Of a DNA stretch of 64,000 bases, positions 15,613 to 59,100 are shown one piece after another. Both the position numbers and the translations under genes were made by a program. The stretch is taken from contig CAJOML010000001.1 of assembly GCA_905235705.1 (NCBI GenBank), forward strand, positions 12,118 to 76,117. The letters are read 5' to 3'. This stretch comes from an uncultured Bacilli bacterium (GTDB lineage Bacteria > Bacillota_I > Bacilli_A > RFN20 > CAG-826). Below the pieces are notes generated by a model that was not told the DNA's origin, made no database searches, and saw only the letters and a program-made list of their open reading frames with translations. Position 1 is the first letter of the stretch. Each line of letters starts with the position of its first letter.

Positions 15613-15623
15613 ATGAGACTACA

Positions 15624-18310: not shown

Positions 18311-18955
18311 ATGGAAAGACCTGCTCTGATTTTTGATTTAGACGGAACATTATGGGATGCTTGTGTCCCCGTAGGCGAAGCTTGGACGATTGTCGGGCGC
18401 CGCTATTTTGGCAAGGATTATTTAGTCAGCGCCGAGATGGCTAAATCGCAAATGGGCCGAACCATGGACGAAATCGGCAAGAATTTGTCCTACCTCGGCT
18501 TAGATGAGGACAGGATGGAAACCTTCATGAAAGAATGTTTCGATTATGAAGTGGAATATCTTAAAGACCACCCGGGCGCTTTATTCGAAGATGAAATCAT
18601 CGCCTTGAATTCATTGAAAAAGATGGGCTTCCGTTTATTCATCGTATCGAATTGCCAATGTGGCTATATCGAAAATTTCCTTCCCTTGGTCGAAGGGATT
18701 TTCGAAGACTACCTTTGTTTTGGCGATACATTATCTCCCAAGAACGTTACGATCCGTGAACTAATGAAAAAGCACCAACTTAAAGATGCCATTTATATCG
18801 GCGATACCGACCGGGATGAGGTTGCCACGCGTCTTGCTGGCCTCCGTTTCATCCATGCCGCATATGGATTTGGCAACGCGAATAATCCCGATGGAGTGGT
18901 GCGCCAATTTGGCGAATATCCAATCGTGTTAAGCGAAATTTGCAAGGATTTTTAA
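18311..18955 (+). CDS. HAD-superfamily hydrolase
   Basis: Motif I FDLDGTLWD, a later K and a DTDRD motif. Confidence 0.75.
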   Translation: MERPALIFDLDGTLWDACVPVGEAWTIVGRRYFGKDYLVSAEMAKSQMGRTMDEIGKNLSYLGLDEDRMETFMKECFDYEVEYLKDHPGALFEDEIIALNSLKKMGFRLFIVSNCQCGYIENFLPLVEGIFEDYLCFGDTLSPKNVTIRELMKKHQLKDAIYIGDTDRDEVATRLAGLRFIHAAYGFGNANNPDGVVRQFGEYPIVLSEICKDF

Positions 18956-36527: not shown

Positions 36528-37685
36528 TTATTTTAATAAGGAAGCGAAGTATTTAAGCTCTTTGTGAGCGATCACGCGGGCGGATTTGTCTTCGTTAAGA
36601 TAAGAAAGGAACCGTTCTTGGTATCGATCTAAACGGGTTTCGGTTTTTGTCTTTTCTTTTATTTGCGCGATCAATTCGGATGCCTTATAAGTCTTACGAT
36701 AATCGTAATCAAACATATCCATGATTCTTTCCAAGGAAAGGATAAAGGCTTTTTCCACCGGGTCCTTGATTTTTAAGACTGCTCTTTTGGTTTGGATTTT
36801 TTGCAAATCTAAGAAGCCACGCGGATCGTTTCTCATCCAGATATTGAAATATTCCCTAGCAAGAGAAGAGAAATAGAAATCGTTTTCTAAGGTAACGCGG
36901 TTCCCTTTCAATGAGCCAAAACTCTTCGCCGCGTCGATATAGCCAAGGCGAATATTATCTTCAATGCGGTTATGGGTGAAACTTAAAAACGAGCCTTGGC
37001 CAAGAGAAGGGGTAATCATGGTGACGTTAGGAAGGTCAAAAAGTTCTTGGTGCTGGGCTACCGGCAATGAATTTAGCTTCACGGCCACGACTTCTTCCGC
37101 CCCTAAGGATAAAGCAAAATCGATCGGCAGGTTATTTCGCCAACCCCCATCAACATAATCGCGTCCTTTTATTTCATATACGGGAAATACCGGCCAGCAA
37201 GCGCTGGAAGCCATTAAATAATCCACGACCTCTTCATCTTTCAATTGATTGACGACAACATCTTCTTCCTTGAATGAAGGGAAGTGGCAAATGACGATTC
37301 CGAGTGTTTTCGGGCCCCGATTGACATGAAGCGGCTCGATCACGTCCTTGAGCATTTTCTTTAAAGGAGCGGTGTTCGCGCCTTTATTCTTCTTATAAGA
37401 GTCAATGGCTTTCGAAAAAGAAGAATCCTTATTAAGATCAACCTTCCTTAGAAAGTTCCTATCGATATCGATGCCATCGGCCATGACCGAATTGACATCG
37501 ACGTTTTTCCACATATTTAACGCTTCTTCGTAGGCGTTAGATGCCACCATCGCCCCATTAATCGCGCCGATGGAAGTGCCGGTGATAATATCAAAATCCA
37601 TGCCATGTTCGCGGAAGTATTGCCATACCCCGATTTCATAGGCCCCTAAAGATCCGCCGCCACATAAGGCTAACCCACGTTTCAT
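36528..37685 (-). CDS. Patatin-like phospholipase
   Basis: CGGGSLGAY oxyanion motif, the GTSIG nucleophile elbow and a DGG motif. Confidence 0.75.
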   Translation of the reverse strand: MKRGLALCGGGSLGAYEIGVWQYFREHGMDFDIITGTSIGAINGAMVASNAYEEALNMWKNVDVNSVMADGIDIDRNFLRKVDLNKDSSFSKAIDSYKKNKGANTAPLKKMLKDVIEPLHVNRGPKTLGIVICHFPSFKEEDVVVNQLKDEEVVDYLMASSACWPVFPVYEIKGRDYVDGGWRNNLPIDFALSLGAEEVVAVKLNSLPVAQHQELFDLPNVTMITPSLGQGSFLSFTHNRIEDNIRLGYIDAAKSFGSLKGNRVTLENDFYFSSLAREYFNIWMRNDPRGFLDLQKIQTKRAVLKIKDPVEKAFILSLERIMDMFDYDYRKTYKASELIAQIKEKTKTETRLDRYQERFLSYLNEDKSARVIAHKELKYFASLLK

Positions 37686-38203: not shown

Positions 38204-41200
38204 TCACGGGGTAACCGAATATCCCGTGTTTTTATAACGACTATTCGAATTTGTTTTGCCATAAGTTGAGTTATACATCGCGTTGCTGGCGGTCATGGCG
38301 TTGCTGTTAATGTTGTAATGGGTATATTTAATAAGCCAGCCGCTCGTGTATGACGAATAAGAATACATATTTACTTTGTGCGAGGAACTAGTCCAAGCAT
38401 TGGTATAAGCCCCAGAAGAAGCGATGTTGGAAATTGATAAATTGAAAGAGGCAGTCGCGGCTTGGATGCCGATTAATGAAAGACCGAAACTGCCGCTTGC
38501 TGAATACAAAGATTTCTTTGAATATCCGCTATATGTGGCGGTTTTGCCGGAGATATTGATGACAAAGTCGGTTAATATGCTGGTCCCAGTCAATCCCTCC
38601 ATCCCGATGGTTAATCGCCAAGATGGATTGGTGGTGTTTCCGCTTGAGGTAACGCCTTTGACGATGTCTTCGCCATGTAATGCTCGGTCGGAGGAAATGT
38701 CGTCTAGGCTAGAGGTAAGACTGCTTTTCATGCCTAAAATGTAGTTCAATAACCATTTCAATATGTTATCCATGAAATTTTCCCCGGTGACACGTTTATA
38801 ACTCTCACTAAAGTCATCGGAGAATACGGTGCTTGGTTCATGAACGTAACGCCGGAAGAATAAGTCTCCTCCAGTTTGGTTATCCCCATCGTTTTCATAA
38901 AATAGGTTAACGTAAGTATTTCCATCGTTTACCAAAGTTATTTTGGGGGTATAGATTGCCCCTACCATCTTGATCTCGGTTCCATCAAGGTAGACGACTA
39001 AATTTATTGTGATGGTCGTTTTTATACCAACGATCGACAAGACGACATTTCCTGAAATGTGGTAGGTGGTTAAGGTCGAAGAATCGGTTACGCCCAAGGT
39101 AATTGTCCCTAGCAAGAAGTCGATTAATTGTTTTAAACACGAATATGAGGTGAAAGAGGAAATGGATGGATTTTCACCCCAATTAAAATCGCTAGCCCTA
39201 GATAAACTGGTTTTGGCCAATTCGATCTTGACGTAGATTTCGCTTCCTTCCGAAGAGGATAAAGAAGGCATATAGAGCTCAATATATTTAGGGAGCCCCT
39301 TCTTTACGTTTCCTTCAACGATGCGGTCTTCACCATAGGTGATACGTAAAGAAGTGGGGACGTTTTCTTTGATTAAGGACGGCTTTAAGACAAACGTGTC
39401 GACGTTGGTCACATTATTGATATCGACGGAAGATAAAATGCCCGAAGAAACGACTTCGAGATATTGTCCCTTCATAATGGCGCCGAAGGTGGTCTTGGTT
39501 TTTAAATCGGTGAAAGCGGAAGTCAAACGTTTAAAACGTGGATCGGTGGAGGTCAATAACTCGGTGAGGGCGTCGAGAACACCGTTCATCGAATGGATGG
39601 AGAAGCGTCCATTCAACCCGTTTTTATTGGTAGGATCAGTAGGTGAATAGTTGCGATTGGTTGAAGTGTTATATCCGTTTTTGGCTTGGCTAGTGTTCAC
39701 CGAGGAATAGGAGAAAAGCATCATTCCGCCGGCACTAGTGTCATTACCCGAGAAATCGCCATTGGTCCAATTTGTCTCTTCCTCATCTGAAGAGGCTTCT
39801 AATGGGGCTCCGGTGACGTCGATTGCGAGGGTATGGTCGTTGATGTAATTCTCTTTACGGTCGGTGAAAATGACCTTCCCAGTCCCGATTTTGTTATACA
39901 AATCGAATCCGAGGCTACCGTTAAAAAGCATGCCCTGTTCATTTAGGTTCTTCGTCCCATCCCAGCTTGAGACGCTTTGGCGGATGTTGCTATGGTTATC
40001 GCTACCTTTTTTGGAAATATAGCCGCTGATATTGGCCTGAACCTGGGTGTTAGGAGATTCTTTTGTGCCGGCAGCATCGGCAATATATTCGTCCCAGCTT
40101 GGTAAATGGGCCATTTCCTGATAGGAAGAAAGGTCCAGGGCATCGATTTTGGCATTAGAAAAGGGTCTTAAGGTCAATAGACCGTCTAAGGTGAAAGTCA
40201 AATTGGGAGAATTTGTCGTGACTATGCCGACTTGATCAAGATCAATCGAAAGGAGGCTGGTGGCCGAATCGGTGGCGTCTAAAGTCGCCGATACCTTCCC
40301 TACCATTTTGGCTTGGAAACCTGTGCCATTTAACTTATCGAGGTCAACTCTCACAATCAATTTGTTTTGGCTCACCCTTAGCGTTGAAATCGCCTCGACG
40401 GCGGTGTGATATTGGCCTGAATCGATGACATTATAGATAGCCGAACCGGTTACGGCGTCAAGAGCGTTAGTGATGGAATCCATGGAAGCCACAACACCGG
40501 CAATGAGGTTTTTGATGGTGTCGTTTTGGATTCCTTCCATGCCTAAGGCTTCTTTTAATGTGGTGGCAAGGGAGGAAAGAGTGGACATTCCGGTCGAGGC
40601 CTTCATCACGCTTTCGTTTAAGGCGATGTAGGCTTTGGTATCTTCTGTTTCTTCTTGAAGAAGAAGGGATATCTTTTCTTGATTGCCGTTCATCGATAAA
40701 GCGGCCTCGCCGAATACTTTTTCAAATGCCCCACCTTCAAAAGAGGCGTCGGCAGATAGGCTTAAGGTCGCGTTTTCGGTGACGGCGTCACGCGAGAAAG
40801 CGGTGGAAGAACCTTCAACCGCCTCTTCGTGGTGGTAGATATTAAACGAGGCATCAATGCCAAACCGTTTGCTAGAAACATAGTCGCCCACATCTTTGAT
40901 GAGATCGATGGAAGAGGAGATTTCAACATAAGACTCGGGATCTTCAGGGGTAAGGTTTTTGATGGTGGTGGCAGGACTTATGGAGGCGGAGAAAGATATC
41001 TCTAAGCCGTCTTCGCTTTGATAGGGGCTTTCTCCTTTTAAGGGAAAATCGATGCCAGATAAAACGGCGGAAGAATTGGCGATTAGGCCAAAGGATAAGG
41101 TCTTCTCGCCTAGAGGCAGGTCATAACGGAAGTAGCCGGATTCGATTTCCTCGATTTGGTCAAAGGAGGCTTTGATTTTGTCCCCGTCAATGGTAATGCC

Positions 41201-41782
41201 ACCGTGTTTAGGCGAAGTTAAAGAAATAGCGGGCAGGTTCCAGGCGTCGAAAAGGGAGTAAAGGAAATAATCGAAGAGGCCATATTCGTAATATTCGATG
41301 CCCCTTGTGGAACTATCTTGCGAGGTAATAGCCTCGACTTGGCTGGGTTCAAGTCTGCTTTTTAGGCGAATCCCATTATTTTCCCCAGGCCAGCTTAGAC
41401 CGACATAGATTTCGTCATCTTCTAGCGACAGCCCAAAGCTACGTTCGACTTGACGGTTATAACTTAGCGTAGCCGCCATGCCGAAAGTGAGTTGATGGAG
41501 GGAAAGCCCATCAAGACGGACATATCCGTGCCCTTCATCGGCCAAAGAAAGGATGTTGTCTCCCTTCCCTTCTTTCCCGGGGATATTAAGCGAAAACGAA
41601 TTGAAATTCAGATCTAGCCCTTTATTTAGCCCCTCTTCAAATTGCTTGGAAATCGGGGCGCTAGGGGCTTCAAGAACCGGGGTGATTTCAGAATGCTCAG
41701 GCGTGGTGTTGACGCAGCTACACAAAAGTAGGCCAATTAGGCCTAGGAGGAGGTAGGGTTTAAACAAGGAAGAGCCACGCAT
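38204..41782 (-). CDS. Very large surface lipoprotein (1192 aa), paralog of 42638..46696
   Basis: Lipobox LLCSC. Ser/Thr/Asn-rich. Shared blocks with the 1352-aa protein (LSLH..., YYEYG.D..., GIDFP...). Confidence 0.6.
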   Translation of the reverse strand: MRGSSLFKPYLLLGLIGLLLCSCVNTTPEHSEITPVLEAPSAPISKQFEEGLNKGLDLNFNSFSLNIPGKEGKGDNILSLADEGHGYVRLDGLSLHQLTFGMAATLSYNRQVERSFGLSLEDDEIYVGLSWPGENNGIRLKSRLEPSQVEAITSQDSSTRGIEYYEYGLFDYFLYSLFDAWNLPAISLTSPKHGGITIDGDKIKASFDQIEEIESGYFRYDLPLGEKTLSFGLIANSSAVLSGIDFPLKGESPYQSEDGLEISFSASISPATTIKNLTPEDPESYVEISSSIDLIKDVGDYVSSKRFGIDASFNIYHHEEAVEGSSTAFSRDAVTENATLSLSADASFEGGAFEKVFGEAALSMNGNQEKISLLLQEETEDTKAYIALNESVMKASTGMSTLSSLATTLKEALGMEGIQNDTIKNLIAGVVASMDSITNALDAVTGSAIYNVIDSGQYHTAVEAISTLRVSQNKLIVRVDLDKLNGTGFQAKMVGKVSATLDATDSATSLLSIDLDQVGIVTTNSPNLTFTLDGLLTLRPFSNAKIDALDLSSYQEMAHLPSWDEYIADAAGTKESPNTQVQANISGYISKKGSDNHSNIRQSVSSWDGTKNLNEQGMLFNGSLGFDLYNKIGTGKVIFTDRKENYINDHTLAIDVTGAPLEASSDEEETNWTNGDFSGNDTSAGGMMLFSYSSVNTSQAKNGYNTSTNRNYSPTDPTNKNGLNGRFSIHSMNGVLDALTELLTSTDPRFKRLTSAFTDLKTKTTFGAIMKGQYLEVVSSGILSSVDINNVTNVDTFVLKPSLIKENVPTSLRITYGEDRIVEGNVKKGLPKYIELYMPSLSSSEGSEIYVKIELAKTSLSRASDFNWGENPSISSFTSYSCLKQLIDFLLGTITLGVTDSSTLTTYHISGNVVLSIVGIKTTITINLVVYLDGTEIKMVGAIYTPKITLVNDGNTYVNLFYENDGDNQTGGDLFFRRYVHEPSTVFSDDFSESYKRVTGENFMDNILKWLLNYILGMKSSLTSSLDDISSDRALHGEDIVKGVTSSGNTTNPSWRLTIGMEGLTGTSILTDFVINISGKTATYSGYSKKSLYSASGSFGLSLIGIQAATASFNLSISNIASSGAYTNAWTSSSHKVNMYSYSSYTSGWLIKYTHYNINSNAMTASNAMYNSTYGKTNSNSRYKNTGYSVTP

Positions 41783-41797
41783 CTGTCTTTTTCTCCG

Positions 41798-41814
41798 TTT
41801 GCATTATATGCAAA
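41798..41814. promoter_or_regulatory. Inverted repeat TTTGCAT-TAT-ATGCAAA overlapping a TATAAT -10 just upstream of the 1192-aa lipoprotein gene
   Basis: 7-bp arms with a 3-bp spacer. Lies 16 bp upstream of the start codon. The reverse complement contains TATAAT. Confidence 0.5.
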
Positions 41815-41907
41815 ACTTTTCAAGGTGGCATATCGAATATAGAAAGCCTCCATTCTCCTGTTTTGAGAATAAAAAAACGCACCACGTGGATGCGTTTTTC
41901 CTTATTT

Positions 41908-42552
41908 TTAGGCTTTTGGCTTGCGTCTGTAATTCGCCCAAAGAACGATGATGACTTGGATGGGGATGCCGACGATTAGGATATACCAAACGTTCTCCGG
42001 TGGGTCCATAAAATAGGCAAATTGGATTGAGAAGGCGATTAAGACAGTCCAAATAAAGACCGATACCAAGACGGTCGCGGCAATCTTATTGTGATAGAGG
42101 AATTTGACCTCTAAATAAGCGACAAGCAGGGCCACAGGCACCATCCAGATAAAGACGGCCCAGGAACGGAATTTAGAGGCAGGATCGACGTTGCCACCAT
42201 GGAAAGGATTGAAATATTCGGAGAAGAAAATCGAAAGGGCGACCAGCACGATAAAAGTCATCGACATGGCTAAAGTCAGGCCATAATTGATATTCCTTGC
42301 CCTGCCTTCTTTCTTGGCGATGGCTTCGAGTTTTTCTTGGTCTTGCGGTTTGAGGAAATAATCGACCGTAACGCCATAAAACTCGGCGAAGTCAACAAGA
42401 ACGTCGACCCCGGGAATGGTATAACCAAGTTCCCATTTGGAAATGGACTTATCCGAATAATTAATTTCTTTGGCAAGTTGCTGTTGGGTGAGGCCACGAG
42501 ACTTCCTTAAGGCCGCCAAGTTTTTCCCAACGATCGAGGCTAAATCTTCCAT
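41908..42552 (-). CDS. XRE-family HTH regulator with C-terminal 4-TM membrane domain
   Basis: N-terminal QQQLAKEINYSDKSISKWELG helix-turn-helix followed by four hydrophobic helices. Confidence 0.7.
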   Translation of the reverse strand: MEDLASIVGKNLAALRKSRGLTQQQLAKEINYSDKSISKWELGYTIPGVDVLVDFAEFYGVTVDYFLKPQDQEKLEAIAKKEGRARNINYGLTLAMSMTFIVLVALSIFFSEYFNPFHGGNVDPASKFRSWAVFIWMVPVALLVAYLEVKFLYHNKIAATVLVSVFIWTVLIAFSIQFAYFMDPPENVWYILIVGIPIQVIIVLWANYRRKPKA

Positions 42553-42556
42553 GCCT

Positions 42557-42570
42557 TAAGTTTAAACTTA
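42557..42570. promoter_or_regulatory. Perfect 14-bp palindrome TAAGTTTAAACTTA abutting the XRE gene start codon
   Basis: Direct reading. Lies 5 bp from the ATG (42550-42552). Confidence 0.45.
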
Positions 42571-42580
42571 GAGCGAAATG

Positions 42581-42618
42581 AAGAAAAGAAAAAGCGACGG
42601 AGACATAGCCTCCGCCGC
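42581..42618 (-). terminator. Rho-independent terminator after the 1352-aa gene
   Basis: On the minus strand gcggcggag gctatgt ctccgtcgc followed by tttttcttttctt. Confidence 0.6.
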
Positions 42619-42637
42619 AAATAATTTAGAGTCGTTT

Positions 42638-45600
42638 TTAGTCGTTCTCTAAGACTTTGGCGATGATGGTTTTTCCTTCCTTTTCGCCAAGGACGATGGT
42701 GTAGCTCTTCCCGGCTTTGAAAGCGAAGGAATATTCGTCAGTGGTCTCCTCGCCGATAGTGACCTTAACGGCATTTAGGCTGCCTTTATATTCAAGAGTA
42801 ACTTCTTCGGCATAGTCAGCCACTTCCCCTTCGACGGTAGCAACTCCTTCGACCAAGACGATGCTAGCGTCATTGGTTAAGCTAGAAGCATCGATGGTGA
42901 AGGTGACGGATTTGGTCGGGTAGATGTAGTGGTTGAATCCGCTTTCGGGGGCGGTAGCATTTTCGAGGGTGTAGTTATAACCATAGTAGTTATTCAACGT
43001 TCCTTCGCTGGTGTCGAGTTCGCCCTGGAATCCGTTTTTGAGTTCAAATAAGCTGCCACGAGCATCTGCGATAACTTCTTCATCGGTTGCATCGTTATCG
43101 TAGAGTAAGCCAGAATCATGGACATTGCCAACGTAAATCTGCGCAAAACGGCTATTTTCTCCGCAAACTGCTTCGATTTGGTTCGATCCAGAGATGTTGG
43201 TCAAATTGAGGGAGACCTTGGCGGAAGCGATGTAGAGCTGGTTGGGTTTTTCGTTGCCTTCAAGAATGTTGGAAGCGGTGGCCTTGACATTTAATTCGGC
43301 GTCAAGACCGGTGAGGATCTTTTCGCTGTAGTTGGTCGAGGTCACCTTTCTTGAATGGATGGTGACGACGATTTCATCAAGAATGCCAACGCCGACTAAC
43401 TCGCCGAGGTCAAGCGAGATGATGTAATCGCGTCCATCGGTGGTTTCGACGGACTTAAATCCGGTCCAAGCATCATCAATATGGATGCCTTTGGCAGAAG
43501 CGGATTCTTCATTTGAAGTTGTGGTCGTCGCTTCTTCGGAAGGAGTAAACAAGGATTCATTTAAGCCGATAGCATATTCGCCAATGTAGCCTAAGAGGTT
43601 GGAAAGGAGATCCTTGCCACCGACTTTAACGGCGTCTTGGACGTTGCGGAGACGGCCATAGGAGGAGTCGCGTAAGATGAGGGCGCTACCTTCGGGATCG
43701 ACACCGTTGGCATAGAAGAAGATTTCGCTGTTGCGCTTACCTTCGATCTCGTTAGGACGGAAGTAATGTTCATCATCAGGCCCGTTGATGCCACGGATGA
43801 CAGGAAGGTTGGGGAAGGAAGCGTAGATCTTAGTTTCTGCCCCTTCGACAGAAGCATCGGCGTTAAATTGATAAACGTTCATGCCATAGCCGGCGATATC
43901 AAGGCCGATGCTGCCTTCGATACCATAGTTGGAAACACCGCCGAAGGTGCCATTATCCATGTAGGTGCCGACGGTTAAGGTGTTGATGAGGTCGCGGCCC
44001 ATTTCGGCAAGAGGGCTGTAATCATCGAACCCTTCATAAGAGGAGATGAAGGAAATTTCTTCGTTTTCAGCGACGGCTTCAATGCCGGAAACGGTGAAGC
44101 TGATAACGGTGGATTCGCCTTCTTCAGGAGCTTTGGTGATGGTGACTTTCAAAGTATCGATGCCACCTTCTTCTTCCCCGCTACTAGGAAGATAGGTGAT
44201 ATCTAAAGCAATGGTGGTGTCTTTCAAGCCAATGGCAGGTCCGTTGATGATAACGGAGGTGGAGGAGCCTAAGGAGACGGTTTTAAGGATGCCTCTAGCT
44301 TCAAGCAAACCGAAGTATTCGCCATTGAGGATATCCCCGATGAGGGAGGATTCGCTCATTAAGGCGGTGCCTAAGCGGGAGAAACGGTCGTCGTTTTTGA
44401 AGAAATCGATGAGGAAGTCAAAGTCAAAGTTGTCCGAATTGAAGACTTTTTTGGCGGCTTCGACATTGATGAAGCCGTTGATGCCTTTGCTAGTTTTGGC
44501 TGAGGATTCAGCGGTGGTGGAATAAGAATCGTAATGGAAGAAGATGTCGGTGAAGCCTTCTTGGAAATCCAAGGCGATGTTGTGGTCTTGGGTGTTGGCT
44601 TCATTTTTCATTTGCTTCAAGGTGAGCTTAGCCCCGCCTTTGCCATTGCTAGTTTCGCCATTGAATTTCACGGCGATATCGCCGCCGATGGCTAGGGTTT
44701 GTTTGTCGCCTTTGGCAATAGAACCAGCTAAATTGGCTTTGAAGGATTTGGAATCGACGAGGCTCTTGATTTGGCCGCCGATGCCTTTAAGGTGGGAGAT
44801 GGTCTCGTAGTTTTTGGCGACGCTTGCGTCAAAAACAGGGGCCTTGGGCTGATCGAAAGCGACGGACTTAACGGAACCATTTAAGGTTAAGGAGGCGAAT
44901 CGGACGTTATTGAAGGTGAGGTTTAAAAGGTTTTCGTCTACCCCATCAAGGGTCAAGCTGACCGTGCCAGTTAAGCCTAAGGGGGAGAGGCCAAGTTCAA
45001 TAAGGATTTGGTTATCCGCGTTTTTGAATAGGGTTAATAAATCAAGTAGTCCGTTATAGGCTCCTTTGTCGATGGCCTTTAGAACTTTGGAGTTTTTGAT
45101 GGCATTAATGGAGTCGCCAATCGAGCCAAGAAGTTTTTCGAATTGATCAAGCGATAGCGAATCGCCAACGCCGGTGAAGGTTTCGGCGATGGTATTGGTA
45201 TAGAATTCGTGGAGATAAGTCCAACCGGATTTGGCTTTGATGACGTCATTGACGTTGAGGTAGCCATTGAAGACTTCGTTTCCTTCTTCGACTTCCTTTA
45301 AGTAAGCGACGCCGATTTTGTTGGCTTTGGTGGAATCGTGAGTTTGAATTGTGCCTTCCCCGATTTCAATGTTGGCATCAAGGCCTTCAAGGGAACGGGT
45401 CGAGGTGGAAAGGGGGTTTCCTTTTACGAAAGCATCAAGATTTGCGTCGATTTTGATATAAGCATCTTCATTGACGCTTTGTTTCTTAAGGTGAGTTCTA
45501 TCGGCTTCTCTATTGTTGCTAGTCGCATGCTTTAGATCTAAGCCGACGGAGACGCCGACTTCGGGTTTGGCGATGACTTTGGCGATCCCTTCAAAGAGCT

Positions 45601-46696
45601 CACGGGAGTTCTTTAATTCTTTGTATGAGGATGCTTCGCCTCTAACTTGCTGATTCCAGTTGATGTCGCTAGTTCCATCAACGGTAATCTCGGCTTGCAA
45701 GGTCATGCCATCTTGAATATTCCAAACAGCGGAATCGGGGGAACCGCCATTAATATCCAATTTGGCGGGGAGGTCGATGCCAGTCAGATTGTAGTCAGAG
45801 CTGCTAGCGAAGCCTAAAGGAATCGTTTTATTATCAGAAATCGGGAGATTCCAAACAAAATATGGCTTAGATGAAACTTCATATTCCTTCATTTCGTCCA
45901 TCGAGGCGAGGATTTTGTCGGTAAGCGAGGTGTCGCTGGTGCTATCATCGCTGGTGGAAGAGGAACCGGTAAGGTTATTTAGCCATCCTTCCAAAGAGAC
46001 GGAGATGCCACCTTCGGATAAGGTTTCGAGGATGACTTCAATCAACCAGTCAAGTTCGCCATATTCATAATAGTATGCGCCACGGGTGAGGGAATCGATG
46101 GAATTAACGGAAGGGTTCACCTGCGAAGCGGCGGCACTAACATGATATTTGAAATCCCAAGTGGATGTGGTGCGAGCGGGAATCTCCCCGTTTTCTTCTA
46201 AATCGGGCACGACATAAGCGGCATCGCCATTATCGAAGAGATCTAAATAGATGTCGTCATTAATCAAAGAAGCATAGATGCCTCTATTTTTGGCCTCGTA
46301 GCCATTATCGCTATAGGAAATAGGTAAATCCAAAGCGAAGTTTATGCCGTGAAGAGAAAGCTCGTTCATGGCAAAATAGATGCGGCCAGGGTTGCTTTCG
46401 GTGACTTCGATCGTGTTATGACCGGCTTTGGCGTTTTCACCGGTATAGAATTGGTCGAATTTCAAGTGCTTAACGTCAAGCTTTAAGCCCGCGGTTGCTC
46501 CTTCGGCGAGGTTTCCGATGAATCTCTCGCGTCCGGTTAAAGCGGCTAGGCCATCGCCATCATCAGGTCCGGCGACGTGCTCGATGCTCACTTTCTGCGG
46601 GATGGCAAAGAAAGTGGTCGCGGCAGCAACGCCAAATAAGGCGAACGCGCTCAAACCTAGAAGGAGACGTTTCTTTCCACTTAATTTTTGTTTCAT
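42638..46696 (-). CDS. Very large surface protein (1352 aa) with N-terminal signal/anchor, paralog of the 1192-aa lipoprotein
   Basis: N-terminal hydrophobic segment. Conserved blocks shared with 38204..41782. Confidence 0.6.
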   Translation of the reverse strand: MKQKLSGKKRLLLGLSAFALFGVAAATTFFAIPQKVSIEHVAGPDDGDGLAALTGRERFIGNLAEGATAGLKLDVKHLKFDQFYTGENAKAGHNTIEVTESNPGRIYFAMNELSLHGINFALDLPISYSDNGYEAKNRGIYASLINDDIYLDLFDNGDAAYVVPDLEENGEIPARTTSTWDFKYHVSAAASQVNPSVNSIDSLTRGAYYYEYGELDWLIEVILETLSEGGISVSLEGWLNNLTGSSSTSDDSTSDTSLTDKILASMDEMKEYEVSSKPYFVWNLPISDNKTIPLGFASSSDYNLTGIDLPAKLDINGGSPDSAVWNIQDGMTLQAEITVDGTSDINWNQQVRGEASSYKELKNSRELFEGIAKVIAKPEVGVSVGLDLKHATSNNREADRTHLKKQSVNEDAYIKIDANLDAFVKGNPLSTSTRSLEGLDANIEIGEGTIQTHDSTKANKIGVAYLKEVEEGNEVFNGYLNVNDVIKAKSGWTYLHEFYTNTIAETFTGVGDSLSLDQFEKLLGSIGDSINAIKNSKVLKAIDKGAYNGLLDLLTLFKNADNQILIELGLSPLGLTGTVSLTLDGVDENLLNLTFNNVRFASLTLNGSVKSVAFDQPKAPVFDASVAKNYETISHLKGIGGQIKSLVDSKSFKANLAGSIAKGDKQTLAIGGDIAVKFNGETSNGKGGAKLTLKQMKNEANTQDHNIALDFQEGFTDIFFHYDSYSTTAESSAKTSKGINGFINVEAAKKVFNSDNFDFDFLIDFFKNDDRFSRLGTALMSESSLIGDILNGEYFGLLEARGILKTVSLGSSTSVIINGPAIGLKDTTIALDITYLPSSGEEEGGIDTLKVTITKAPEEGESTVISFTVSGIEAVAENEEISFISSYEGFDDYSPLAEMGRDLINTLTVGTYMDNGTFGGVSNYGIEGSIGLDIAGYGMNVYQFNADASVEGAETKIYASFPNLPVIRGINGPDDEHYFRPNEIEGKRNSEIFFYANGVDPEGSALILRDSSYGRLRNVQDAVKVGGKDLLSNLLGYIGEYAIGLNESLFTPSEEATTTTSNEESASAKGIHIDDAWTGFKSVETTDGRDYIISLDLGELVGVGILDEIVVTIHSRKVTSTNYSEKILTGLDAELNVKATASNILEGNEKPNQLYIASAKVSLNLTNISGSNQIEAVCGENSRFAQIYVGNVHDSGLLYDNDATDEEVIADARGSLFELKNGFQGELDTSEGTLNNYYGYNYTLENATAPESGFNHYIYPTKSVTFTIDASSLTNDASIVLVEGVATVEGEVADYAEEVTLEYKGSLNAVKVTIGEETTDEYSFAFKAGKSYTIVLGEKEGKTIIAKVLEND

Positions 46697-46711
46697 AAGT
46701 TTTACTCCTTT

Positions 46712-47650
46712 TTATAGACTTTTGGGGAATGCTTCCAAGACGCTGCCGGGATTTGGATATCCGCCAGGCATCGGCACGTGGAAGTAGACGTTAGTGAGTT
46801 CGCCAGTGCATGAACTTCCGACGCCGGCGGAAGTGGTGGCGAAGTAACGTTCGTGGCTTTTCATGCGAACGAGGTTGAGGTCCTTGTCTAGGGTAACCGT
46901 GAGGTGTACCCAATCGAAGGTGGGCCTGTTTTTGAGGTTGGAGATGCTTTGCATCTGCTTTTGATAACGGGCCGTCGAGGTCTTAGGGTCTAATTCCACT
47001 TCGACACGGTATCCGCCGTTTTCCTCATAAATCCCAGTCGGGGGATCCCCAGAAGGGCTGCTCCCTTGTAAGAGGGTTTTCTCCGATACGATGTAGGAGA
47101 GTCCGACCGAGACATATCGCCCCATCTTCTCCTTGTATTGCTCGTTAGTGATGGTTTCGGGCGTGTGGGAAGCGTAGTCAGGGTTATCGCCCCAATACAA
47201 AGTGGTGTTATCGCCTTCTTGGAACATTCGGTCGTATAGATTAACTAGACCGCTGGAATTGGATTCCTCGAAATAGCGATTTCCTTCTTTTGCGGTGCGT
47301 GCGGTAATGACTTGCTTGACCATCGCGGCTTGGGTGAAACCGACACCCATTGAGTAATTGCTTTCCTCTTGTCCGAATAACTCGAACCCGATGTTGATCA
47401 TTTCAGGGGCGGAAAGGGAGGAATAATCGCCTTTTGATTTTGCCGCCTGATATTTCTTCATCGTCGTCTCGATGTCGATAACATAGGCATCTTCGTCAAC
47501 CACATATTGAGTGGTATCGGGCTTGAGGACTTTGGCCAAGACGAAACCGCCGACCACTCCTAGCACCGCAGCGGAGGCTAGGACAATCGGCCAGACCAGG
47601 GCGATGCCATGGTGAGAACGGGTTTTATTCACTGATTCAACGGTTTTCAT
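46712..47650 (-). CDS. Membrane-anchored (N-terminal TM) extracytoplasmic protein, unknown function
   Basis: 312 aa with a single N-terminal TM. Ends 16 bp upstream of the 1352-aa gene. Confidence 0.5.
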   Translation of the reverse strand: MKTVESVNKTRSHHGIALVWPIVLASAAVLGVVGGFVLAKVLKPDTTQYVVDEDAYVIDIETTMKKYQAAKSKGDYSSLSAPEMINIGFELFGQEESNYSMGVGFTQAAMVKQVITARTAKEGNRYFEESNSSGLVNLYDRMFQEGDNTTLYWGDNPDYASHTPETITNEQYKEKMGRYVSVGLSYIVSEKTLLQGSSPSGDPPTGIYEENGGYRVEVELDPKTSTARYQKQMQSISNLKNRPTFDWVHLTVTLDKDLNLVRMKSHERYFATTSAGVGSSCTGELTNVYFHVPMPGGYPNPGSVLEAFPKSL

Positions 47651-47940
47651 CTTTGGACCGGCAAGAATTTACTATGCGTGCGAGGCTGGTGCACTCTATA
47701 CGTGTTTCCCTAATTTAAAGGAAACCATTTCTCTAAAATAGAGAGTTATTTTAGATAGGACGTGACACAAAAAATTAATGAAATAAGGAAGGAAGGGCTC
47801 GTGATTTTAAAATGAGTGAACTTTTGGGGGAGACGAGTTTCTTTCATGTCTTAAAGCGGGCTTTTTTAATGTGATATTCCCCTTTTTCTTTCGAAAAATT
47901 GTGGTTTTTGATATAATTAACCAAAATAAGGAGGGGTCCT

Positions 47941-48990: not shown

Positions 48991-49091
48991 AATAAAAACC
49001 TACCGCGCATAGTTTACTCATCCAAACTCAAATGGGCAATATAGAGTTTTACTCTAGATTATTCCCTTTTTGTCCCGTTCCTGTGATAATT

Positions 49092-50960
49092 ATGGCGATG
49101 AAAAAATCTTTTGGTTTTGTCATGGCCGCCTCCTTGGCCTCGATTGTCCTCGCAGGGTGCGATTTATCCCCAGGCGAGGCGGGGGATTATTTCCGTGTCG
49201 ATCTTTATTCCGATTATGAAGGAATCGACAGCGATTTGGCCAAGCAATCGCTAAAACCAACCAATGCCAAGCATCTTGGATATTGCTATGCCAAAAAGGG
49301 CGGCAAAGCCAATATTGATGGGTTAATCGTTATCGATTCATGGGAATACCATAAATCCACCCGCACAGCTCCAAGTGGATACACATATCAATTCGCTTCG
49401 TGGAACGGGTTTTATGAAGACGGCAAAAAAATCGATCTTAACGTCGTCACCGCCGCATGTTCGGTTTACGCAACTTTCGATAAAGTCGAGAAGTCTTATG
49501 CGATTGCCTTAGAGAATTCTTATCAAGTGGCGAAAAAGGGTAATGGCAAATACCAAAGCGCCCTTGGCGATGTCGAAGGTTTCGCCTTGACTTCCGATGA
49601 ATTTAAGCACGATCCTCTTAATTTTGATTACGACCCCTATTATAAAAACTACACCTTCGATGGCTATACCATCACCACCGTGGACGATGCAAACGTTTCG
49701 ACTTCCGTCAAAGTCAGCGCGAAAGAAGGCTTTTCGAAAGTAAATGAACATCTTATCGGCGGGAAGACCACGGTTGAAGTCAATTATATTGAATCGCTTA
49801 AGGATTATACGGTTACCATAAACCCCGTTTTCCGCGATGAGGATGATAATGAAACTAGCCTTGTTTCCCTTTTCGGCGAAGAAGAATTAAAACAAACCAT
49901 CACTTACGATGAAGCTTTGGCCCCGACCAAAAACCTTTCTGGTTATGTTTTCTTGGGATATGAAGGAACTTACGGGGAAGATGCCGATAGCCATGTCAAA
50001 GGGCATGTCATTGACCCGACCCATATCCGTTATCATGGCGAGGTGAAGGCGGTTTATGTTGAAGAAGTTCCTTCTCGCGAAGTCTTGTTCCATCTTGGTG
50101 CCACCTCGACTAAGAAGACGACTTTCCATCAAGGCGGGATGCCTATTCTTCCTGACCGCAACGTCGAAGTCCCCGATAAATATGCCTTTACCGGATATTA
50201 TGCAAAGACCGAGGGAAGCTATGAGGCTATCGATTTCTCATCCATCTTTGATGAAGAAACGACTCTTGACGCCTATCCGATTTTCGTGCCCTTAAGGCTT
50301 GCTTATATAAATACAAAGAAGATTGGCGGCGAGACCTATGATCAACAATTCACTTATCGTTTCGATCGCTCCTATGGCGGATATATGCTTGAAAACTATT
50401 GCTTAAGCAAAGGCGGGGTTTTCGCCGAAAGGCTCGAACCCTCCATCAAATTAAGCGCCGAAGATTTCTGGGATAAGGATAATTCTTCCGGATACGAGGC
50501 AATTGGTATCGCCGGTTATAGTGATATGGCAACGATTTTATCCGCCTATGAATTCGTTGGCGTCTCTAGTTTTACTTCCTCCTCGGCATCTAATGCCTTA
50601 GGAAGTGCCGCCTATGCCATTGAAGAACTCGCTTTGCCAAATTCAGTTAAAACGATTTCCTCGAATGGCTTTGCCTTGCTTAGCGGCTTAGGATATGGTG
50701 GCCATCAACTCGATTTAAGTGGCTTGGATTTAGAATATATCGGACCTGCCGCTTTCCGTTCTTGCATCAATTTAAAGAACATCACGTTGCCTAAATTATC
50801 CCAAGTCGATGCTCGGCTTTTTGCTGAATGTGATTGGCTTAGCGGCGTCGAAGTGGGCAATACCGAAGATGAATTATCTACCCTTATCGGCGAGGGCAAA
50901 GTCCATGCCGATTGGAATAAAAACGGAGATGTTACCATCCCCGTGACTTATGCTGCTTGA
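49092..50960 (+). CDS. Lipoprotein with C-terminal BspA-type leucine-rich repeats
   Basis: MAMKKSF..LAGC lipobox. C-terminal repeats with the LPNSVKTIS..AF / L..I.LP.L..V pattern typical of LRR_5. Confidence 0.6.
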   Translation: MAMKKSFGFVMAASLASIVLAGCDLSPGEAGDYFRVDLYSDYEGIDSDLAKQSLKPTNAKHLGYCYAKKGGKANIDGLIVIDSWEYHKSTRTAPSGYTYQFASWNGFYEDGKKIDLNVVTAACSVYATFDKVEKSYAIALENSYQVAKKGNGKYQSALGDVEGFALTSDEFKHDPLNFDYDPYYKNYTFDGYTITTVDDANVSTSVKVSAKEGFSKVNEHLIGGKTTVEVNYIESLKDYTVTINPVFRDEDDNETSLVSLFGEEELKQTITYDEALAPTKNLSGYVFLGYEGTYGEDADSHVKGHVIDPTHIRYHGEVKAVYVEEVPSREVLFHLGATSTKKTTFHQGGMPILPDRNVEVPDKYAFTGYYAKTEGSYEAIDFSSIFDEETTLDAYPIFVPLRLAYINTKKIGGETYDQQFTYRFDRSYGGYMLENYCLSKGGVFAERLEPSIKLSAEDFWDKDNSSGYEAIGIAGYSDMATILSAYEFVGVSSFTSSSASNALGSAAYAIEELALPNSVKTISSNGFALLSGLGYGGHQLDLSGLDLEYIGPAAFRSCINLKNITLPKLSQVDARLFAECDWLSGVEVGNTEDELSTLIGEGKVHADWNKNGDVTIPVTYAA

Positions 50961-56196: not shown

Positions 56197-59100
56197 ATGC
56201 GCATGATACTCGCGAGCGGATTTGACATCAGTGGCCTCATTGATAATTTGGATTTGATTTGGTCAATCGTCTTCTGGTCTATTCTTGGCCTTTTGCTTAT
56301 TTCGTTTTTCATTGGCTTACTTCGTGGCTGGAAAAGCGGGACATATCGCCTGATTTTCCTTTCCGTCTTGGCCGTAACGTTGCTTGCTTTTCTTGGCGTT
56401 TTTGCCGATGTTATCGGCAAAATAGATTTACGTTCCTTTACACAGAATCCGATTAGCTTCACTTTGAATGAGGTAGAGATCAGCGCCAACCCAGGACCTG
56501 TTTTCGAAACGGTTCGGGAACTGACCTATAAGGTCCTCAAAGACGCCTTGAAAATCAAGGGCTCGGTTGAGACGCTTCAAAACTATGCCGTCGCATTGAC
56601 CGCTTCAATGATTCGCCTTGCTCTTATCGCCATAATCGGCATAACGGTTGCTACCGTCGGCTCGTTGCTTTGCTGGATATTGTGGCACATTGCCTTTAAA
56701 TTCATCATCCCCAAGCCCAAACGTAAGCCGAAATTACGTTGGGTTTCAGGCATTGAGGAAGTGGTTGTCACAGCCTTATGTGGCGTTTTGATGCTCACCC
56801 CATTCTCGGCCATTAGCAACTCCACTATTTCTAACATCAATCCCAATTCGATTTCCAGCACAGACGAAACGGTCGTGATGTTTAAAAAAGTGGCCTCAAC
56901 TTACAACGAATCAATTTTAAATAAAGCTTTCTTTGCTTGGACAAAAGGGGATGGCAGCAGGACCCTTGATGCCCAGTTTGTCGAATTCCTTTGCCAAGTT
57001 GACACTGAAACGATGTCGGCAAACATCATCTCCGATTTGGCCAATATCAGCTATGCGGCAGGAAAGATCTTGGATGCGGCTTCGGGGGGAGAAAACGCCA
57101 ATGGCGAGCTTTCGGGCTTTGCCTTTGCCCCGATTAATTATGCCGGTCACCTGTTGGTAGAGACCCTTACTTTCGCTGGCAATGACGGCATTGGACTAGT
57201 CAACGGGCTTGCTTCTTTTGCCTCCGACCTCGCGGTTCATTCAGACCAAGTCGTCTCTTATTTAGGCAACGATATCCAAGACCAACTTGTCACGAAAGAA
57301 AAGACCCCTGAGGCTTATCTAAAGAAAGCGGCCCGTTCTTATCGCGCTTTAGCGCAGGCCGAATTCCTTCCGACTATAGTCGATCCCTTCTTTGAAGCGG
57401 AGACGCCATATCCTTCTTATGATGACCCCTATGCCTTATTGACCTCGGATTATACCTTGGATTGCTTGCTCGAATTAAAGAAAGACCAGGAGAGCCGTTC
57501 CTTTTATGACGGCTTGATAAAAGGTTATATCTATGACCATGGTTCACATGCTTCCTTAAAGACGCTTGCGCCGCTGAAAGAAGATGGCTCTGCCGATGTA
57601 AAGGCGATGAATGACATCTCTTATCTTGATGAAGCGGTCACGGTCGTCACCTTCCTTAACCGGGCCAACCACATCGATGCCGATTTCACAAAACAGTTGA
57701 TTCGCTACGCTTCCGAAGGAGGCAGCAACCAAAGCTCTTCCACCGATCTTAGTAGCCTCCTTGCTATGGCGATGAGGGCATTAGCCAATAATAGCGAGGC
57801 TTTAGCCGATGCTTTGATTGGGCCTCGCGACGAACAAGGCGAACCAATCACCGGATATCGTGGACTTTCTAGTAAAGGCTGCTTAATGGATTCAGGCTTA
57901 ATCAATGCCGCTTTCCCCGCTCTTTTGGAATTGGCTGGCAACGTCCTTTCTAATGCCACCGACTCTACCGTCGATATCTCCGAAGTGGCGAATGCTCTTT
58001 CTGATCCAAACTGGGAGATTTTAGTTAAGAATAACAAACGCGAACTTGGGGCTACCTTAGATGTTTTGCTACGTCTAACCCAAAACCCCTATGCCGGTAG
58101 CTCTAACCAAGAAAAAGTCACCTATGGCCAGTCGATTGCCGATACCGGGAAAGCTTTCCTCCGTGATTTCAGCAAACACCCCGGCGTTGACCTTGATCCT
58201 GAAAAGCACCTTTATGATTTCGATGGCAAATTAGGCAGTAGTTTGATGTATGCCATTTCGGGCTTAGACAAATCTAAAGCCCTTGCCGCTTTGGTCCCTG
58301 CCTTTGCCGAAAACGCGATTAACAATATCGACCTATTTAAGGGCGATAATCCGCTTACTTTCGATTTCCATCCCATTGATAGTCAAGGTAATTCGATTCT
58401 TGGTATTGAACTTGCTAAGATTCTTTCAATTGTCGCTCAAGCTCCTCACGTCTTCCCAATTTTCCTTAGAAGCGGGACTTTCAGCGTCAATTCCATCTCC
58501 ACCGCGATGATGAATCACGAACAGGAATTCGTCAAAATTTTAGATGCCTTTGCCGGGTCTAAAATCGCTAACCCCGTGATCAATGGCAATAAAAACGTGA
58601 ACATGATTCGCCTATTCAATAGCCTATTTAAGGGGCTTGAAATCGAATCATCCTTAACCGAAAACGACCTTAACGACGTCGCCCTTGTCAATACCTATGA
58701 TGGGGAAGACGGCAATATCGTGTCCTATTTAAGCGGCAACATCGTAGCAGGCAAGGAAACCGAGGATTATTATCTCATCAATGCCGTCGCCGGCGTCATG
58801 AATAGCGGCGTTCTTAACGCTTTACAAACGATTACCAATACCAATGAAATCCTTGCCAATTTGGGCGAAGCCGATATGGAAGGTATCTTCTCCTCACTTG
58901 GCGGGTCGGTCATTTTACGCAAAGTCATGCCAGCTTATTTAGATGCCAAGATTTTAGATGACATGCTCAATTCCGCGGGTGACGTGAGCTTGAAGAAAAT
59001 GGGCGTTAGCTTCACTAACCTTACCACCAAACAGCAATGGGCTAGTGAAGGGGCTCGTTTCCAATCGATGATCGATCTTATCACCAAAGGTATCGATTTA

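Follow-up and report, generated by a model that had tools for sequence, protein, structure and literature searches.

In the window, as we call the whole 64,000-nucleotide stretch analyzed here, four genes make up a conserved, lineage-specific envelope module found in uncultured Bacilli of the gut and rumen, whose components are a small membrane protein (p312), two giant surface proteins (A and B) and an XRE transmembrane regulator. In our favored reading, to which we give about an even chance, the regulator is a membrane-embedded one-component protein of a lipid-linked family and controls a lineage-specific surface complex that possibly captures lipid.

Gene layout and the membrane-embedded regulator

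The four genes lie on the minus strand in the order p312, giant A, regulator and giant B, with open reading frames positioned as in the initial annotation. The p312 gene (46712..47650, minus strand; 312 aa) leads an operon with giant A (42638..46696, minus strand; 1,352 aa), which begins 15 nt past the p312 stop codon; the regulator gene (41908..42552, minus strand; 214 aa) and giant B (38204..41782, minus strand), which encodes a 1,192-aa lipoprotein, come next. The cluster had been described as a co-directional block, and the shared strand was confirmed, but terminators divide it into three transcription units, one comprising p312 and A and one each for the regulator and B. The intrinsic terminator 3' of giant A (42594..42618, minus strand; an 11-bp stem followed by TTTTTCTTTT) was the top-ranked terminator-like site of the region in a terminator scan, and equivalent hairpins were seen in loci L003, L004 and L005. 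The terminator-like hairpin with a T-run 3' of the regulator gene (41871..41896, minus strand; AAAAACGCATCCACGTGGTGCGTTTTTTT) was read from the sequence; it has a bulged stem and is missing from the list of the simple terminator scan. Overall, the regulatory layout of the cluster is well supported.

All four parts were found together in more than 20 loci, and the hosts were in every case uncultured gut or rumen Bacilli. The order of the four genes is conserved in L002/L003, L004, L005 and L013 and permuted in L001 and L012, while the distant loci L020, L021 and L022 also hold all the parts, with 34 to 41% identity in the regulator and 28 to 31% in p312. When metagenomes were scanned with the regulator as seed, p312 and giants were again adjacent in 12 or 13 of the closest relatives. 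A conserved BspA-type LRR surface protein is also encoded near the cluster.

The regulator was initially annotated as an XRE helix-turn-helix protein with four C-terminal membrane helices, and the analysis bore this out: an HTH_3 domain (residues 12 to 66; E = 3.9e-16) is followed by a linker and four hydrophobic segments (residues 92 to 110, 131 to 149, 157 to 175 and 188 to 206), with both termini predicted to be cytoplasmic. Orthologs match over the full length at 34 to 66% identity. The recognition helix (YSDKSISKWELGY) is unchanged in the five close orthologs aligned and nearly identical in distant loci (YSDK(S/L/T)ISKWE(L/Q)G); its conservation across 80 scan loci is partly produced by the seeding of the scan with the regulator. 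In the membrane part, residues W131 and F134 are kept in 86 unique relatives. These features support its assignment as a putative membrane-embedded one-component regulator. Comparative genomics also supports its proposed tie to the giants, since the genes stay together even at wide divergence and the giants' transcription units are preceded by a conserved dyad (TTCTCC-N5-GGAGAA; see below).

Membrane-bound one-component transcription regulators have been reviewed, including BcrR of Enterococcus faecalis (PMC10269533). The protein described here resembles BcrR in joining an N-terminal cytoplasmic XRE-type HTH to four membrane helices, with no further domain, in ca. 200 aa, and also in lying beside its presumed targets, the presumed operator being an inverted repeat 5' of the promoter of the target. 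The architecture of BcrR and its binding to inverted repeats were reportedly described by Gauntlett in 2008 and Darnell in 2019, both of whom the review cites. The likeness is one of architecture and gene setting; the operator TTCTCC-N5-GGAGAA would be specific to the present regulator family, and the targets here are giant surface proteins (DegV/FakB in a sister branch), not the bacitracin ABC transporter bcrABD.

The giant surface proteins and a possible lipid link

The predicted topologies show p312, giant A and giant B to be membrane-tethered and to face outward. p312 is bitopic, having a single membrane helix at the N terminus (residues 15 to 33) and an extracytoplasmic domain of ca. 275 aa; it had no match in Pfam, NCBIfam or PDB, and its orthologs (28 to 60% identity) lie directly 5' of a giant in every locus examined. 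Giant A has an N-terminal signal-anchor helix (residues 11 to 29) followed by a large extracytoplasmic body, while giant B carries a lipobox (LLLC-SC), as do B orthologs. The initial annotation had taken the two for paralogs sharing several sequence blocks, and pairwise alignment established this (BLASTP E = 9e-39; 22% identity over ca. 1,150 residues, including the LSLH, TRG..YYEYG.D and GID.P blocks). Their supposed richness in Ser, Thr and Asn applies to B (13.0, 8.5 and 6.7%, respectively) and less so to A. That their family was not recognized proved well founded, as neither giant had a Pfam, NCBIfam or PDB sequence-family match.

Each genome holds either one syntenic A/B pair or one giant only. 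The pair sits among housekeeping genes, and neither tandem repeats nor simple-sequence (phase-variation) tracts were found at it. The suggestion of an expanded family was therefore abandoned; on this genomic evidence, the giants are not an expanded variable-antigen family. Giant A orthologs are 34 to 48% identical, and the giants as a whole show the same 34 to 48% between genomes, compared with 62 to 87% for housekeeping neighbors in the same genomes. The mode of anchoring varies in the family: a membrane helix, a lipobox or a pilin-like N terminus. One distant relative, P0098, bears six CBM_5_12 carbohydrate-binding modules.

One lipid connection comes from the regulator family. At ca. 38 loci, more distant regulator relatives without nearby giants directly adjoin a gene for a DegV/FakB fatty-acid-binding protein, at a distance of 3 to 309 nt; DegV is usually downstream and co-directional, and a dyad of the form TCTAC-N5-GTAGA lies between the two genes. 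These regulators form a different branch (27 to 32% identity), and carrying their signal over to the giant-linked branch would be an extrapolation. Other neighbors of the family are VTT/DedA and glycolipid-type glycosyltransferase genes. Lipases also occur beside the giants themselves, at two distinct loci only: a Lipase_3 gene lies 32 nt 3' of giant B in L001, and a lipoprotein Lipase_3 is encoded directly 3' of a 4,042-aa relative in L019. In the window, a patatin-like phospholipase gene (36528..37685, minus strand; Pfam Patatin, E = 6e-33), tentatively an accessory gene, is located 474 nt from giant B, beyond ruvX on the opposite strand. Patatin genes are also found near the cluster in L003, L011, L021 and L026, in the last of these 24 nt past the regulator gene. 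No signal peptide was detected in the patatins, which would therefore act inside the cell, and part of their association may be inherited gene order. From these neighborhoods we infer a lipid function for the unit. The role of antigen or adhesin first proposed drew support from no test, while the DegV, lipase and patatin associations point to lipids.

Genetic linkage between a transcription factor and DegV, which binds fatty acids, recalls the FabT/FapR regulators of fatty-acid use in Firmicutes and the FakA/FakB (DegV) fatty-acid kinase system, and it makes membrane lipid homeostasis a likely theme. FabT and FapR are soluble proteins of the MarR and DeoR types that sense acyl-ACP or malonyl-CoA, whereas the regulator described here is membrane-embedded and of the XRE class. 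No account of such an XRE-membrane protein paired with DegV turned up in a literature search.

With the same regulatory layout, the giants and p312 could instead form a structure unrelated to lipids, for example an adhesin or a coat that protects the cell in its gut or rumen habitat, induced by envelope stress through the regulator. We consider this a possible but doubtful reading. Compared with the housekeeping genes around them, the giants evolve two to three times faster, as exposed surface proteins do, and their variable anchoring resembles that of surface appendages; the BspA-type protein close by and the CBM_5_12 modules of P0098 would fit as well, and profile searches detected no lipid-binding family in the cluster proteins or distant relatives. 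Nevertheless, searches of the 36 distant members revealed no adhesin, Ig-like, SLH, LPXTG or repeat domain, the pair is single copy and syntenic without phase-variation tracts, and the other presumed targets of the regulator family (DegV, VTT/DedA and glycolipid-type glycosyltransferases) belong to membrane-lipid functions rather than to adhesion.

Palindromes and the candidate operator

Two palindromes had been placed at the giant B -10 element and at the regulator start, and both are there. The first (TTTGCATATAATGCAAA; 41798-41814) encloses the giant B -10 hexamer TATAAT (41803-41808), the best sigma-70-like -10 in the 10-kb region (ATGCCA-17-TATAAT; 10/12). A lone 7-3-7 palindrome per 125-nt spacer is only marginally beyond chance, and this one gains weight because it is conserved across species: TATAATGC is conserved in five genomes, with counterparts CTTGCATATAATGCAAG in L003, where the outer base covaries, and CGCACATATAATGCGCG in L004. 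The second (TAAGTTTAAACTTA; 42557-42570, minus strand) ends 4 nt before the regulator ATG. It contains a -10-like TAAACT only 6 nt before the ATG, which suggests that the regulator mRNA may be leaderless; orthologs have TACAAT, TAAGAT or TAGAAT 6 to 11 nt before the ATG. The sequence of this palindrome is not conserved, those of the orthologs being different or missing (L003, L004 and L005).

As operators, these palindromes are surpassed by a third element that the initial annotation lacked, the dyad TTCTCC-N5-GGAGAA, the best candidate for the regulator, whose relatives follow the regulator family into giant-free loci. Dyad 1 (47729-47745; CTCTCTATTTTAGAGAA on the minus strand; 9/12 match) precedes the p312 start by 78 nt and is kept at the same place in eight genomes (9 to 12 of 12, spacer always 5). 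Dyad 2 (41853-41869; TTCTCAAAACAGGAGAA on the minus strand; 11/12 match) precedes the giant B start by 70 nt, with counterparts at the same place in L003, L004, L005 and L013 (10 to 12 of 12). The dyad precedes B solely where B owns its promoter, and it is absent before A, before the regulator gene and before B where B directly follows A. Distant loci have variants of the form TTCTAC-N5-GTAGAA. The 1.14 Mb of locus sequence retrieved contained 67 symmetric dyads, of which 37 are no more than 450 nt away from a regulator gene and ca. 10 others belong to p312 promoters. A conserved TAGAGTGC box (47691..47698, minus strand), 30 nt downstream of dyad 1 and present in 7 of 8 p312 promoters (GAGAGTGC in L012), probably represents an additional half-site (GTAGAG) belonging to the operator family of the dyad; such half-sites recur in DegV-type promoters. 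The spacing between the dyad and the conserved element downstream is unequal in the two promoters, being 30 nt to this box in front of p312 and 44 nt to TATAAT in front of B, which speaks against our favored reading.

An XRE switch acting through the two palindromes on a variable antigen or adhesin family, as first envisaged, seems very improbable to us. Both palindromes exist, and the first overlaps a -10 element and shows partial conservation, its outer base covarying. However, the half-sites TTTGCAT and TAAGTTT are unlike each other and unlike the dyad that accompanies the regulator family, the second palindrome varies despite a nearly invariant recognition helix, and neither family expansion within genomes nor repeats were found. 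It is very improbable that the dyad is read by another factor, or is no operator, with the XRE gene a mere syntenic neighbor exerting no control. The window's own sites are imperfect (11/12 and 9/12) and not significant within the window alone, and the motif also occurs inside a flavodoxin gene by coding coincidence; but the dyad accompanies the regulator gene to different targets and in widely differing genomes, its sequence changes symmetrically, and a single copy is left in L001 and L012, whose three structural genes make up one operon.

Giant fold and proposed function

The AlphaFold2 model of giant B, a confident one (pLDDT, 84.5; pTM, 0.73), has four tandem units of ca. 280 aa, each composed of a helix, 5 or 6 long strands, a helical bundle and 5 strands, and internal repeats were also detected with hhalign. 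As modeled, A and B are built from four tandem helix/beta-meander units, in a fold without a solved counterpart: no solved structure matched the fold, the best Foldseek TM-scores (≤0.18 in the top 50 PDB hits) being not significant as folds. The weak matches were mainly open beta-sheet lipid or outer-membrane proteins, including LptD, MTP, ApoB and FadL, and 36 of 51 modeled strands are hydrophobic on one face only. As evidence for a lipid role, these structural hints carry very little weight.

Large lipid-associated beta-sheet proteins (AsmA/TamB, LptD, the LprG/LolA fold and Mycoplasma P116) resemble the giants in size, membrane tethering, long amphipathic antiparallel strands and these weak Foldseek matches. 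The giants differ from them in having neither a sequence-family nor a significant structural match, in their four tandem units with helical bundles and in their pairing with a paralog and p312. That they are divergent bridge-like lipid-transfer proteins of the AsmA/TamB type, made of repeating beta-groove units, is the least probable reading of all: the N-terminal membrane anchor, the length of ca. 1,200 aa, the repeated units of a helix and a 5- to 6-strand meander with one-sided hydrophobic strands and the weak top matches (LptD, MTP and ApoB) would suit it, but no AsmA, DUF490 or related Pfam match was found in the window proteins or the 36 relatives, the top 50 Foldseek hits (TM-scores of ≤0.18) include no TamB, VPS13 or ATG2, helical bundles break the sheets, and the Bacilli hosts have no known second membrane to bridge. 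The Mollicutes, a Bacilli-derived lineage, have operons in which a smaller protein is followed by two very large, structurally related surface proteins, such as the P1 operon of M. pneumoniae and the P97/P102 pairs of M. hyopneumoniae. The present pair differs in its N-terminal anchoring, its one copy per genome and its dedicated membrane regulator; a PDB sequence search with the giants gave no match, and the top 50 Foldseek PDB hits (TM-score of ≤0.18) contain no P1, P110 or P140 structure.

In the reading we favor, the regulator would bind the dyad TTCTCC-N5-GGAGAA as a dimer or multimer, together with GTAGAG-like half-sites, and would act through the sites upstream of the p312-A and B promoters to control both units; a point against it is that a second conserved element, the -10 palindrome, has a half-site unrelated to that of the dyad. 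This binding and control have good comparative support. Less firmly, the four-helix domain may sense a signal within the membrane, most likely a fatty acid or the lipid state, because the sister regulator branch adjoins DegV/FakB with the same kind of dyad. Also less firmly, the giants and p312 may assemble into a complex on the surface, with A and B as a heteromer, to capture or handle lipid from outside, perhaps assisted by the neighboring lipases.

Gene organization and conservation of the module

The four minus-strand open reading frames (ORFs) of the initial annotation were found exactly where it had placed them, namely, a gene for a 312-amino-acid (aa) protein with one N-terminal membrane helix (p312, 46712..47650), giant A (1352 aa, with an N-terminal signal-anchor helix, 42638..46696), a regulator of the XRE type (214 aa, 41908..42552), and giant B (1192 aa, with a lipobox, 38204..41782). 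The proposed paralogy of the two giants also held, with a collinear BLASTP alignment over ca. 1150 residues (E = 9e-39, 22% identity) that contains the motifs quoted as shared. Only 15 nt separate p312 from giant A. Given the strong intrinsic terminator that a terminator scan placed 3' of giant A (42594-42618) and the hairpin and T-run read from the sequence downstream of the regulator gene, the cluster would comprise three transcription units, p312-A, the regulator, and B. No riboswitch or leader was detected with Rfam in its intergenic regions. Within the window, ruvX, a patatin gene, and pepF lie beside p312 and the giants, and the nearest ABC/FtsX genes (8623-11903) are at least 27 kb away.

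Among the homologous loci fetched from other genomes and metagenomes (designated L plus a number), the order p312, A, regulator, B recurred in L002/L003, L004, L005, and L013, and L001 and L012 had p312, A, and B with the regulator just downstream. The flanking genes are of the housekeeping kind (carD, cobW, ruvX, pepF, and clpB), which marks this as a core chromosomal locus. Between the window and L003, L004, and L001, identities were 62 to 87% for housekeeping neighbors, 34 to 48% for the giants, 47 to 60% for p312, and 54 to 66% for the regulator. The giants thus seem to evolve much like exposed surface proteins, yet the initial proposal of an expanded family did not agree with what we found, that is, one A/B pair per locus, conserved synteny, and a single copy per genome. 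Only two tandem repeats, both trivial, were present in the 10 kb of the cluster, and there were no variation-driving repeats of the phase-variable antigen type. As a module, the giants are conserved and present in single copy, and they do not make up an expanded antigen family.

In the very distant loci L020, L021, and L022, all parts were kept, with one or two giants each (only one in L021). Here, the regulator retained 34 to 41% identity over its full length, membrane helices included, and p312 retained 28 to 31%. The paired giants of L020 (9001-15295) and L022 (9001-18452) were closer to each other (307 and 458 bits, respectively) than to A or B of the window. These scores imply that the pairing either arose repeatedly, by duplication, or is homogenized by gene conversion, which in turn suggests that the working unit is dimeric. 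The anchor of the giants was N-terminal in every case, and its type varied by lineage (membrane helix, lipobox, or pilin-like N terminus). The second giant of L022 (1344 aa, 14418-18452) had, in place of a lipobox, an N-terminal methylation motif like that of type IV pilins (MKKRSGFTVIELI..., N_methyl E = 2e-6); a further N_methyl ORF was present at 22303 of the same locus. In L019 (8001-21597; GCA_024712465.1, JAMQYI010513563.1), we found a 4042-aa relative with ten matches to the middle module of the giants and six CBM_5_12 (chitin/carbohydrate-binding) modules. Since the contig number (JAMQYI010513563) implies an assembly of more than 500,000 contigs, its source may be a symbiont or a contaminant within a eukaryote genome project.

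Other features of the window were recorded along the way. The BspA-type leucine-rich repeat protein (642 aa, 49032-50960, plus strand) is conserved in synteny and diverges even more rapidly than the giants do (34% and 26% identity, versus 80% and 65% for housekeeping proteins). A 2471-aa ORF (56197-63612, plus strand), which has 17 cysteines, about four membrane helices at the N terminus, and no Pfam match, is accompanied by CAAX-protease-like and TraX-like membrane proteins; as a candidate third giant paralog, it was rejected (hhalign probability of 0.1%). Positions 1 to 2040, with a GC content of 0.32 versus ca. 0.45, encode a Schlafen AlbA_2/HATPase_c_4 protein (241-2040, minus strand), and these first 2 kb may have been acquired horizontally.

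The membrane regulator and its candidate operator

The regulator has an N-terminal HTH_3 domain (residues 12 to 66; E = 3.9e-16, exceeding the curated cutoff) and four hydrophobic segments (residues 92 to 206) with K/R-rich N- and C-terminal flanks, conserved in 86 relatives. No two-component genes are adjacent. With a predicted cytoplasmic DNA-binding domain at the N terminus, membrane helices, and no kinase or receiver partner, it would be classed as a transmembrane transcription regulator. The recognition helix (YSDKSISKWELGY) was invariant in close orthologs and nearly so in distant ones, and conservation in the membrane domain of the 86 unique relatives reached 100% for W131, 94% for F134, and 84 to 86% for P139, W189, and P197. 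The closest known pattern is that of BcrR, with an XRE HTH and four membrane helices (PMC10269533). The two are alike in this architecture, whereas bcrABD (ABC transporter and undecaprenol kinase/phosphatase) is not adjacent here. A plasmid tblastn search gave HTH-plus-membrane regulators of lactic acid bacteria at 26 to 33% identity, none of them identified as bcrR. By this likeness in architecture, the regulator may work as BcrR-type proteins do, but it should not be called BcrR.

With the regulator alignment as seed, we scanned metagenomes and obtained at least 496 full-length relatives; 80 loci were fetched and their ORFs searched with HMMs. The closest relatives (ca. 33% identity or more) had p312 and the giants adjacent in 12 to 13 loci, while the distant ones (27 to 32%) had no giants. 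Near the latter, a DegV/FakB gene lay at a distance of 3 to 309 nt in ca. 38 loci (among L038 to L101), usually downstream and codirectional; a VTT/DedA gene was found in 5 loci and glycosyltransferase/LPG-synthase genes in a few. The literature that we searched contained no account of a pairing of DegV with an XRE-membrane regulator. The spacer between regulator and DegV genes (for example, L083 10624-10800 and L072 10590-10730) contained (T/C)TCTAC-N5-GTAGA(G/A) and, at the -35 position, a GTAG(C/G)TTG box, in addition to one to three extra GTAGAG half-sites.

In the giant loci, alignment of upstream regions yielded the dyad TTCTCC-N5-GGAGAA, with scores of 9 to 12 out of 12 and a spacer of invariably 5 nt. 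It was located 78 to 124 nt 5' of p312 in 8 genomes and 55 to 164 nt 5' of B in the 5 genomes with a B-specific promoter; before A, the regulator gene, or a B directly following A, there was only background (8 to 9 out of 12, varying spacers). The window has one copy upstream of p312 (47729-47745) and another upstream of B (41853-41869), both candidate operators, and the distant loci showed the symmetric variant TTCTAC-N5-GTAGAA. Conserved in p312 promoters 30 nt downstream of the dyad is an TAGAGTGC box (47691-47698), probably a further half-site. We had considered TAGAGT as the -10 of these promoters and dropped it for an extra half-site, given the repeated GTAGAG in DegV-type promoters; a CIRCE/HrcA reading of GAGTGC...GCAC was discarded, the arms being in the wrong order. 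Across 1.14 Mb of fetched DNA, 37 of the 67 symmetric dyads had a regulator gene no more than 450 nt away and ca. 10 more were p312 promoters, so that the dyad accompanies the regulator irrespective of the target. This is the strongest argument available for taking it as the candidate operator. Matches to the motif also appeared 24 to 27 nt inside Flavodoxin_4 ORFs (L004 23335-23352, L001 19493-19509, and L013 16449-16465); they are probably a coding coincidence, since by codon reasoning the motif might spell a flavodoxin-type F-S-x-x-G-E.

The initial annotation had assigned the switch to two other palindromes. Both exist, but the dyad is the better operator candidate. The first (41798-41814) surrounds the region's best sigma-70-like -10 and is partly conserved (TATAATGC in 5 genomes, with a covarying outer base in L003). 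This -10-centered palindrome before B, with an GCATATAATGC core, is conserved at the equivalent sites of L003, L004, and L013; in its half-site it bears no relation to the dyad. At the -35 position, B promoters have a cGATA(n)GC box in common. A second factor may act at this palindrome. The second one (42557-42570) showed no conservation and shares sequence with a -10-like hexamer located 6 nt upstream of the regulator ATG. Orthologs have such a hexamer 6 to 11 nt before the ATG, a proximity that suggests a leaderless mRNA. Thus, one-component control of the giants from the membrane is plausible and has comparative backing, although through a different operator, and the predicted regulatory layout of the module is well supported.

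Family and fold of the giant proteins

Neither the giants nor p312 had matches in Pfam, NCBIfam, or PADLOC (among the four cluster proteins, only the HTH of the regulator did), and profiles of p312 and the giants retrieved no sequence match from the PDB. When 1.84 billion cluster representatives were searched exhaustively by HMM, only 192 relatives of the giants were retrieved, 120 of them at E ≤ 1e-30, in a family of ca. 190 clusters at 50% identity. The possibility that p312 is a fragment-like relative was tested and rejected. Pfam found no domain in 36 distant relatives apart from the CBM_5_12 modules of the 4042-aa protein. All named sources were "hypothetical protein" entries of "Bacilli bacterium" metagenome-assembled genomes (MAGs), and the titles of the giant-locus MAGs were "Bacilli bacterium," "uncultured Erysipelotrichaceae," and "Bacillales," with many of the MAGs named for rumen or ruminant-gut samples.

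The AlphaFold2 model of giant B (66-sequence alignment) reached a pLDDT of 84.5 and a pTM of 0.73. It predicts four tandem units, each with a helix, 5 to 6 long strands, a helical bundle, and ca. 5 further strands. Profile comparison of submodules backed this internal repeat (90% probability for 460-545 versus 720-860; 58 to 61% for other pairs). In 36 of the 51 modelled strands, hydrophobicity was confined to one face. Foldseek gave no real match to the PDB or BFVD (TM-scores of ≤0.18, with nothing among viral structures), and the best rows were generic long-sheet proteins (LptD, MTP, ApoB, FadL, and porins), not significant at these scores. Local matches to LprG and DUF1329 from an earlier 13-sequence model (pLDDT of 59.7) were absent with the better one.

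In the comparisons made, the giants could be placed in none of the AsmA/TamB, variable lipoprotein, wall-anchored/S-layer, or defense groups. The Pfam models AsmA, AsmA_2, and TamB (DUF490) matched neither A nor B (E up to 0.1) nor any of the 36 distant relatives (E up to 0.001), and solved TamB, VPS13, and ATG2 fragments were missing from the top 50 Foldseek rows for giant B. Pfam found no SLH, LPXTG/Gram_pos_anchor, CWB, or Ig-like repeat domains in the giants or these relatives, and in the PADLOC search for antiphage defense only the HTH of the regulator matched (RmrA and CapH).

Lipid-related genes and the possible role of the module

Several neighbors of the giants are related to lipids. 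In L001, a Lipase_3 gene lies 32 nt downstream of B, and in L019 a lipoprotein Lipase_3 directly follows the 4042-aa relative; the two lipases are homologous (E = 5e-24). Downstream of the giants in L020, a 474-aa gene was tried as another homolog and proved not to be one. Patatin-like phospholipases were present within the cluster or adjoining it in five cases (the window, L003, L011, L021, and L026). Together with these lipases and patatins, the tie of the sister regulator branch to a fatty-acid-binding protein points indirectly toward lipids. Lipid capture is therefore our leading hypothesis for the giants, though unproven and held only tentatively. Its main rival is a non-lipid surface coat or adhesin. 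Against lipid capture, the patatins had no signal peptides, the association may be partly inherited gene order, and the structural hints were not significant.

In the boldest form of the lipid-capture hypothesis, a hitherto undescribed family of XRE membrane regulators with the operator TCT(A/C)C-N5-G(T/G)AGA would sense fatty acids or lipid state directly in the membrane. Its target in many gut Firmicutes would be FakB/DegV. In one rumen/gut Bacilli lineage, the regulator would have been rewired to a surface machine of new fold, p312 plus two paralogous giants, capturing host or dietary lipid for a bacterium of reduced genome. Taken as a whole, we consider this scenario rather unlikely. The regulation would be of a known kind, and the controlled proteins of an unknown kind.

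Since the regulators known so far are soluble, little is understood of how Firmicutes sense exogenous fatty acids at the membrane. A membrane regulator with a clear operator, present beside fakB/degV across dozens of gut lineages, would provide a candidate sensor open to direct testing. The family of the giants is unannotated throughout, and its confident model has no match in fold. In uncultured Bacilli of the rumen and gut, these proteins are conserved as a core locus, which makes them likely to be important for the envelope or nutrition of these bacteria. The pair of operator and regulator would offer a practical route to inducing and studying them in a heterologous host.
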